Below are positions 3,633 to 5,786 of a DNA stretch of 64,000 bases, in pieces. The stretch's first letter is position 1; the number at the start of each line of letters is the position of its first letter. Below the pieces are notes generated by a model that was not told where the DNA came from, did not search any database, and saw only the letters and a list, made by a program, of their open reading frames with translations. Both the position numbers and the translations under genes were made by a program. The stretch spans positions 79,484,001 through 79,548,000 of the forward strand of contig OX597816.1 in assembly GCA_951406725.2 (NCBI GenBank). Direction: 5' to 3'. Source of the stretch: Octopus vulgaris. Taxonomy: Eukaryota.

Positions 3633-4031
3633 GAGGGATGACTACTACGTGGACATCCATTATGTTAGAAGTAGATCCACTATGGTCTTACCACTAAGAA
3701 TTGAATGTTCTCAAGAAAATTTAGCAAACGCCAGAACGTAAGCGAGCAAGACAAATGAAAAGAAACGCATGTTTTTATATGTTTTTACTTGACTTGAAAA
3801 TTTCTTGCGTCAATGCATGAGTCAAACGTTAAAAATGATTCCTTGATCCTTGAATTCTGATTGGATCCTTGAAGCGGTTCTTTCACTTTGTTCCACCGTT
3901 TCTTTTCATTTCCCTTGCTCGCTTACTTGCTGGTGTTTTCTAAATTTTCTTGAGAACATTCCTTTGTTAGAGGTAAGACCATAGCGGATCTACGTCTAGC
4001 ATAATGGATGTCCACGTAGTGGTCATCCCTC
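3633..4031. repeat. Inverted repeat (135-bp arms) enclosing an antisense copy of SULT exon 5 and its 3' UTR
   Basis: Arms 3633-3767 and 3897-4031. The spacer 3769-3900 is the reverse complement of 4577-4708. Confidence 0.9.
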
Positions 4032-4147
4032 ATATATGTATGCAATATAATTTTTCTGAATCTTCAGATATGAATATGCTAGACCACTGGTTTTAAATTG
4101 ATATTAATCAAATTAATATTCAATTTTTCACCCTTATTATTTTATAC

Positions 4148-4274
4148 ATACACACACACACACACACACACACACACACACACACACACACACACACACA
4201 CACACACACACACACACACACACACACACACACACACACACACACACACACACACACACACACACACACACACA
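4148..4274. repeat. (CA)n microsatellite
   Basis: Direct reading. Confidence 0.95.
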
Positions 4275-4548
4275 TATATATATATATTCCATTTTTTCTC
4301 GTTGTTTACGTATTTCATGTTGTGAAATACGGAAACGTTGGTGACGTCCTGTTCCCATATATGCATGTGTGTATATTGTATATGTATATATATATATATA
4401 TATATATATATATACATACATACATATACATATGTATACTATATATTATTTACCATTTATTACATGTGTGTCTGTGTCTGTGTGTGTGCGTGCATGAATT
4501 TAATATATCCCATTTTCCACATAATGCCTGTTTCCGTATTATTTACAG

Positions 4549-4655
4549 GTAAAGTAGACACATGGAAAAAATGGTTAACGGTGGAACAAAGTGAAAGAAT
4601 CGATGCAAGGATTCAATCAGAATTCACGGATCAAGGAATCATCTTTAATTTTTAA
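4549..4655 (+). CDS. Last coding exon of sulfotransferase-like gene copy A (upstream exons lie outside the window)
   Basis: tttacag acceptor, encodes (G)[34 protein letters not shown]. Same 107-nt length as exon 5 of copies B and C. AATAAA at 4787-4792. Confidence 0.85.
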
Positions 4656-5786
4656 CTCATGCATTGACGCAAGAAATTTTCAAGTCAAGTAAAGTTATAC
4701 AAAAACATATATTGCCAGTTCAGCCTTCTTTATTGGCTCGACGATAATTTCTTAAGCTCTACGTCCTTATAGTGTAGTTTTTAATCAATAAATTTCAGTA
4801 AAACAAAATTCACATTTATTGTATTTCGATTTTTATTTGGAACCTTATGAAAGTTTCCTCAACATATTGTATGTAAAATGTAATATCCGATTTTGCAAAT
4901 GAACTCCCTCCAAACCCATATGCAGCATACACTAATATTAGAACAATTATGCCTTTTATTTTTACATCAATCTAACATTATTATTTCAATCACTCCTCTA
5001 AAAAGGAAATAAAATTTACATATGGATATTCATTAACAGATGGCTCAAAGTGGTTTCATACCTCTTATCAAAATGATGTTTCCATAGTAATCTCCTTAGT
5101 CTGTTGAACTATATCGCTATTAGACATGGTTTCAACAAGCATTATTTATCGAATTTTGTGTTTTCGTAAATTGTAGTAATCTTCATGAAGGCACACGAAA
5201 CAAACGTAGATGTAACTGAGCACTACTTTTTTCCAATTGATACATATGTTTCAGTATTCAGCAATACATAACGTCACATTATAGTTGCAACAAATAGATA
5301 CAACTTACAGGGCCAACATGTAGCAGTCACATCGTCAGACAATTGAAAAAGAAATATAAGCTAACCACTAGCAGCAACCAAATTTAAATACAATGGAGGA
5401 ATACGCCAGATAGGAGTGGGTAGTTAAACTAATCGGCATAACAACACAGTCGACTGGTGTTTCATAATAGTAGGGATTAGGGATTAGGTCACCTGTATTT
5501 GACGATACACGGAGGAGGAGAAAGGTGACGGTGGAGGGCAAAGAGGGAAAGTTAACATCTGGTAAGATAAATGAGTGTAATAGAAATTGTCTACGCCGTC
5601 ACAGTCTGGTTAGCCCCATATACCCACGCATGCACACATGCAAGCACATGCAAACACACACAAACACACACACATACACACACACACTATATATATAAAT
5701 ATATATATATATATATATATATATATATATATACATATACACACGTGCGAATATGTGTACACACTCATACACACACATACATATTC

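Follow-up and report, generated by a model that had tools for sequence, protein, structure and literature searches.

The last intron of a gene in Octopus vulgaris carries an antisense copy of part of that gene's own last exon, set between two inverted repeats. How did this arrangement arise, and does it act on the gene that contains it? The original prediction for the window (the whole 64,000-nucleotide stretch of DNA analyzed here) put an editing-complementary or silencing element first and kept an inert templated filler between transposable-element arms as a fallback. In RNA editing, an intronic editing-complementary sequence (ECS) pairs with an exon and guides ADAR. Our analysis favors the fallback. 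With a probability of about 0.8, we consider the structure to have been left by a single Penelope-type insertion, during which a piece of the exon was likely copied locally as filler that has since likely decayed without function.

Several known systems bear on this reading. Penelope-like elements (PLEs) are described as carrying an inverted 5'-truncated copy with a tail on one end and as using microsatellite targets (PMC8557442, PMC3846280); in vitro, two reverse transcriptase (RT) start sites explain the tail and both strands are extended (PMC11167929). How the tandem and inverted structures of PLEs arise has been called undefined (PMC8557442), and a rotifer provides an example of host DNA captured between pLTRs (PMC3846280). 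Non-LTR retrozymes are non-coding, low-GC elements found in molluscs that have been proposed to be non-autonomous PLE derivatives (PMC7229834; bioRxiv 10.64898/2026.07.22.740005). For L1, 22 templated insertions with sources near the site have been reported, usually within 15 bp (bioRxiv 10.1101/2024.08.27.596794). Published precedents exist for inverted pairs of PLEs, for their capture of host DNA and for templated insertions of L1; the literature searched yielded no case of filler taken from the target flank and set between symmetric PLE arms, though supplements may hold some.

The inverted exon copy and its host gene

The features of the locus are as follows (positions in the window).

3623..3766, minus strand: left arm, an inverted 5'-truncated repeat monomer (reference 341-484/492, the family's inner 3' end), joined to a TA-rich SINE-like tail
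3767..3768, no strand: left-junction bases GC, matching neither the arm family nor the exon source
3769..3900, minus strand: captured filler (spacer), reverse complement of 4577-4708, 119/132
3897..4144, plus strand: right arm plus a tail of ~100 nt (reference 341-589, the family's outer 3' end), ending at a (CA)n tract
4549..4655, plus strand: last coding exon (exon 5) of copy A, KVDTWKKW...FNF*; acceptor AG 4547-4548, stop TAA 4653-4655
4577..4708, plus strand: filler source, 433 bp beyond the element's right end
4656..4814, plus strand: 3' UTR of copy A, AATAAA at 4787, with RNA-like contigs from three studies stopping at 4804-4814

On re-alignment, the spacer proved to be an ungapped reverse complement of exon 5 and 3' UTR sequence with exactly the predicted count, 119 of 132 matches (E 1e-46 within the 64,000-nt window). 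The inverted arms are real as well, but the 135-bp pair noted originally (3633-3767/3897-4031) is only the core of 145-nt arms (3623-3767 and 3897-4041, 129/145 matches, 89% alike), and the right arm runs on beyond the paired part as an unpaired element tail to ~4144. Both arms stop at the same monomer base, 341. At the right junction the arm and the exon source share a 3-nt microhomology, AAC. No target-site duplication is visible at this locus, where both flanks are simple repeats.

In a search of the 2.8 Gb genome, the spacer matched paralog exons only: copy A at 90%, copies B and C at 86%, and an upstream sulfotransferase paralog at 80% over 71 nt. Where copies A and B differ, the spacer agrees with A at 12 sites and with B at 6; it also has 6 private changes and one three-way site. 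Judged by these substitutions, the spacer is sister to copy A. Whether it retains an ancestral TGA is equivocal, as two more distant paralogs have TAA and the change takes two steps either way. An assembly artefact is argued against because the copies are ~10% diverged. The statement that copies B and C lack such an element held over the 134 kb around and including them, where no other arm copy was found.

The host gene encodes a cytosolic sulfotransferase (Pfam Sulfotransfer_1 on the copy B exons, E 3.5e-13 for exon 2) and belongs to a cluster of at least five paralogs rather than the three first counted. Copies B and C (33349-46617 and 54662-63813) stem from a recent tandem duplication and share 94-99% identity across many kb. 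The window begins just downstream of exons 2-4 of copy A, whose exons 2-5 are open. Contigs from three studies (X10, X15 and X16) span exon 5 and continue through the UTR as far as 4804-4814, a little beyond AATAAA 4787; none of the matching runs is recorded as RNA, and that the contigs represent RNA is a guess, backed by the ends of all three near this signal and by the junction in X16 that splices exon 5 to copy A's own exon 4. The original prediction had named lack of expression as a result that would speak against it; copy A is expressed and spliced, and is neither silenced nor visibly mis-spliced in the sampled contigs.

The arms belong to a repeat family with a Penelope-like layout

The left arm gave 3157 first-look candidates in the genome search. 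In other copies the sequence goes on past both arm ends, which reveals a larger monomer: non-coding, ~537-540 nt long and occurring in partial tandems. By this comparison, the arms are pieces of a high-copy repeat and no purpose-built frame. A mariner-MITE reading of the arm ends was dropped once other genomic copies were compared.

The monomer contains a predicted type I hammerhead, ~20 nt upstream of the point where the window arms stop; the window copy itself lacks it. The prediction, made through motif and pair counts, comprises helix I, CUGANGA, helix II, GAAA and a 2-bp palindromic helix III. The CUGANGA/GAAA core is invariant in 32/32 copies, which had been picked by motif, and 97.8% of helix cells are paired in these copies as against 23-52% in slid controls, cell counts that are inflated by subfamily relatedness. 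Helices I and II show compensatory changes, with 27 double changes (0/500 shuffles). An Rfam scan of 16 loci returned, among the matches listed (150 of 182), only microsatellite-driven miRNA noise below gathering scores. The predicted fold agrees with published accounts of hammerheads in metazoan PLEs and retrozymes (PMC4209133, PMC7229834). Inspected by eye, the mapped loci showed only partial tandems and no repeated units that each carry a full hammerhead. We also observed that 5' truncations reach 0.0146 per nt at monomer 322-345, just downstream of the predicted cut, vs 0.006-0.007 upstream; this could mark cleaved RNA as template, and a GATTAATC palindrome there and the choice of query confound the excess.

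Family layout was mapped at 155 loci (117 unique ones from 150 fetched, plus 38 chosen by coordinate as not yet fetched), which are the best-scoring hits to five queries and no random sample. Head-to-head pairs number 85, in 84 of the loci; 71/155 have no partner arm. In 68/85 pairs the arms end differently, one within monomer positions 465-510 and its partner at position 570 or further on. The 3' ends of the family peak at 480-500 and 580-600, and such a pair carries a tail at just one of its ends; the window's left arm stops at the inner end, and its right arm carries the tail. Of 30 loci inspected, most have (TA)n or similar tracts directly next to the outer ends. As separate observations, ten loci on different contigs (L104, L105, L108, L111, L115, L116, L132, L222, L223 and L230) share the same inverted junction (monomer 400 with 415), to be explained either by retrotransposition of the inverted structure as such or by a join directed by sequence; at L012 the whole head-to-head pair is duplicated twice, in opposite orientation, within 1 kb.

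The hallmark of autonomous PLEs, an ORF with RT and GIY-YIG endonuclease, is absent from the monomer, and no autonomous partner was found: a Penelope-type ORF (Pfam RVT_1 at only E 0.033) adjoins the monomer at one locus, L144. This ORF was rejected as the partner, for 1/25 copies of its family, L144 itself, carries the monomer. The ORF family (L144:1-1400 and L183-L207) is itself high-copy, with 1498 candidates; it too has two 3' ends, separated by ~45 nt, and terminates in (TTA)n/(TAA)n tracts. The arm family is likely a non-autonomous PLE derivative close to non-LTR retrozymes and a proven member of neither; its layout suggests mobilization by a PLE protein.

The window holds further repeats. 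A second, unrelated PLE-type insertion with ~220-bp inverted arms occupies 678-2007 of the same intron; between its arms, a minus-strand frame (1078-1491) ends like a GIY-YIG endonuclease (Pfam GIY-YIG match below cut-off, E 0.005). Another repeat forms a spacerless head-to-head fold-back pair at 2539-2828, with related copies at 49297-49585 and 50230-50381; it may represent a third PLE-type family. Decayed transposase remains with stops and frameshifts, which we take from their motifs to be mariner-like, are present at 5785-6600. A SINE-like repeat forms a 240-bp inverted pair at 8985-10241 (92% alike, 777 bp apart) and likely yields dsRNA.

Fillers with a local source at this and other junctions

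Collapsing repeated junctions left 71 distinct ones, 3 of which contain non-element filler longer than 100 nt, each with its source 0.3-1.6 kb from its own insertion.

Window: inverted filler, source 433 bp beyond the right end, 119/132
L049: inverted filler, source 260 bp upstream, 125/137
L096: direct filler, source 1.6 kb away, 146/163

The L096 source belongs to a repeat family, yet it is the best genome hit after the filler itself (87%, other hits reaching 73-89% over shorter stretches). It had been proposed that other arm copies might carry different captured spacers, and L049 and L096 do; these two further fillers with a local source support the reading of the window spacer as inert templated filler between transposable-element arms. 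We regard a wider reading as unlikely, in which PLE insertions keep supplying ECSs: where both cDNAs reach the same RNA end, host DNA copied from up to 2 kb away would bridge the gap and leave inverted exon copies in introns, probably tens of times for the arm family alone in this genome, and in an animal that edits heavily some products, the window's included, would then direct ADAR to exons.

Divergence between filler and source is about the same as that between the two arms at each of the three loci (p 0.85, 0.83 and 0.29), as expected if filler and arms arose together and then drifted; on 132 nt, equal divergence is a weak test of neutrality. The arms are cut within 6 nt of each other in 3/3 filler cases vs 8/67 others (median offset 61 nt), an association with p 0.003, or 0.019 without the window locus, for a cut-off set after seeing the data and three filler cases. 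Shorter fillers of 13-43 nt at L064, L129, L224 and L226 had no source in their flanks, and L149 has an 11-nt filler at the junction. A 204-nt insert at L214 was left out of the count: here a SINE-like sequence entered one of the arms at a later time, with a 9-bp duplication.

Predicted pairing with the exon and possible RNA editing

Whatever its origin, the filler might now act as an editing-complementary or silencing sequence, through ADAR editing, nuclear retention, altered 3' processing or small RNAs. Octopus is a favorable setting, with high dsRNA content and hyper-editing reported (PMC5625713), and the predicted 132-bp spacer-exon duplex is strong (-182 kcal/mol with copy A, -157 with copy B). 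A fold of 3600-4830 agreed with the original prediction in that this duplex can form, with an ensemble about half spacer-exon (60 expected pairs vs 65 for the arm hairpin); the arm hairpin (predicted z -21.8) competes at slightly lower energy, -395.3 kcal/mol in the free fold vs -392.5 with spacer-exon pairing forced. The spacer-exon duplex is thus feasible in the model, where it competes with a hairpin whose helix excludes it. The hairpin would be complete ~540 nt ahead of transcription of the target if folding is co-transcriptional, and is predicted to form first in the pre-mRNA and then to be spliced out. It is itself probably an ADAR substrate, like any inverted repeat.

The mismatch highlighted originally, A4654 (the middle A of TAA 4653-4655) facing C3823, was borne out in the duplex and is the single exon-side A:C site. 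Placed at the stop codon it looks suited to editing, but editing it turns UAA into UGA, still a stop, with no recoding at this site alone; editing both stop-codon As would add W-L-M-H only. Eight transitions separate spacer and exon, 5 giving wobble pairs and 3 giving A:C (p 0.73), with no wobble bias. Selection for pairing left no sign, at the low power available, either in divergence, which equals that of the arms, or in a wobble excess. No A-to-G change in copy A exon 5 appears in the contigs of 3/3 RNA-like runs over 4563-4812, which drop rare variants: X10 and X15 are identical to the genome over 4566-4812 and 4563-4804, and of two differences listed for X16 one is A>T. The headline of the original prediction has no positive support, and we consider a present function of this kind very unlikely.

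Origin of the structure

Built on the observed family, layout, two 3' ends, local source, matching divergence and gene expression, the Penelope-type insertion we favor can be sketched as a series of steps. A Penelope RT/endonuclease acting in trans would have cut TA-rich intron DNA, and both DNA ends would have been extended from the family's two start sites, ~492 and ~592-598. Synthesis of both cDNAs presumably ended at RNA position 341, and the two, being of the same sense, could not pair with one another. One end may then have jumped, via the AAC microhomology, onto exon 5 some 0.4-0.6 kb off; ~130 nt of the exon region would have been copied before the ends were joined with two extra bases. 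The template could be DNA (a snap-back on the same strand) or nascent RNA. The window filler does not separate the two because the copied piece holds no splice junction, while the three filler cases lean to DNA because their orientation and side are mixed. Against this scheme count the missing partner, the long tail, the lack of a visible target-site duplication, the window copy without a hammerhead and the short fillers without source.

Two other origins deserve consideration. A solo element might have been present first, with a later replication or repair template switch adding the left arm and the exon copy; arms ending at the same base and microhomology at the junction would follow from such an event. 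The left arm, however, stops at the inner 3' end common to 68/85 pairs, which a random switch would not choose, and an arm followed by exon sequence does not form a single inverted run and would require further switches. This makes a template switch quite improbable. Long inverted arms flanking captured host sequence in TA-rich DNA also recall a DNA transposon of the MITE or Pack type that has terminal inverted repeats of 135 bp and picked up gene sequence during gap repair. Asymmetric outer ends, widely variable inner ends, 71/155 loci without a partner arm, units in tandem, a predicted hammerhead and no target duplication seen are at odds with it; this reading is largely refuted and scarcely credible.

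Discussion

The arm family resembles the PLEs described in PMC8557442, PMC3846280 and PMC11167929 in its head-to-head truncated copy, one-end tail, two start sites and partial tandems, and likewise in its predicted type I hammerhead and microsatellite targets. Unlike them it has no ORF and no partner was found, and its tail is ~100 nt rather than the published 30-40 nt. In contrast to the rotifer capture described in PMC3846280, the DNA captured in the window comes from the flank of the new insertion and lies between symmetric arms. With non-LTR retrozymes as described (PMC7229834) the family shares a non-coding low-GC monomer, a predicted type I hammerhead and a short palindromic helix III; it differs in monomer length (~540 vs ~300 nt), in its mostly truncated, inverted copies, and in that the mapped loci show partial tandems only and no array with two full hammerheads.

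L1 twin priming, as reported in bioRxiv 10.1101/2024.08.27.596794 and PMC11702581, offers a parallel in two primed cDNAs, microhomology joins and nearby templates (<250 bp). The sources found here are 0.3-1.6 kb off, whereas those reported for L1 are usually within 15 bp; moreover, the arms here duplicate the same sequence, and the window event is germline and old (~10% diverged). As with intronic ECSs and inverted-repeat ADAR substrates in general, the locus allows an intron-exon duplex, and its arm hairpin is a typical hyper-editing substrate; unlike known ECSs, the spacer goes with no editing seen in the contigs, no possible recoding at the noted site and no conservation signal.

For sulfotransferase copy A, the structure is probably of little consequence, and it serves as a warning that intronic exon-complementary matches need not be regulatory. 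Its value is mechanistic. The junctions of this family, with two fixed start sites on opposite ends, symmetric truncation with filler, and flank-derived fillers, are genomic footprints that bear on the undefined origin of PLE inverted structures. They also illustrate one route by which exon-complementary sequence, the raw material for RNA editing, may enter introns.
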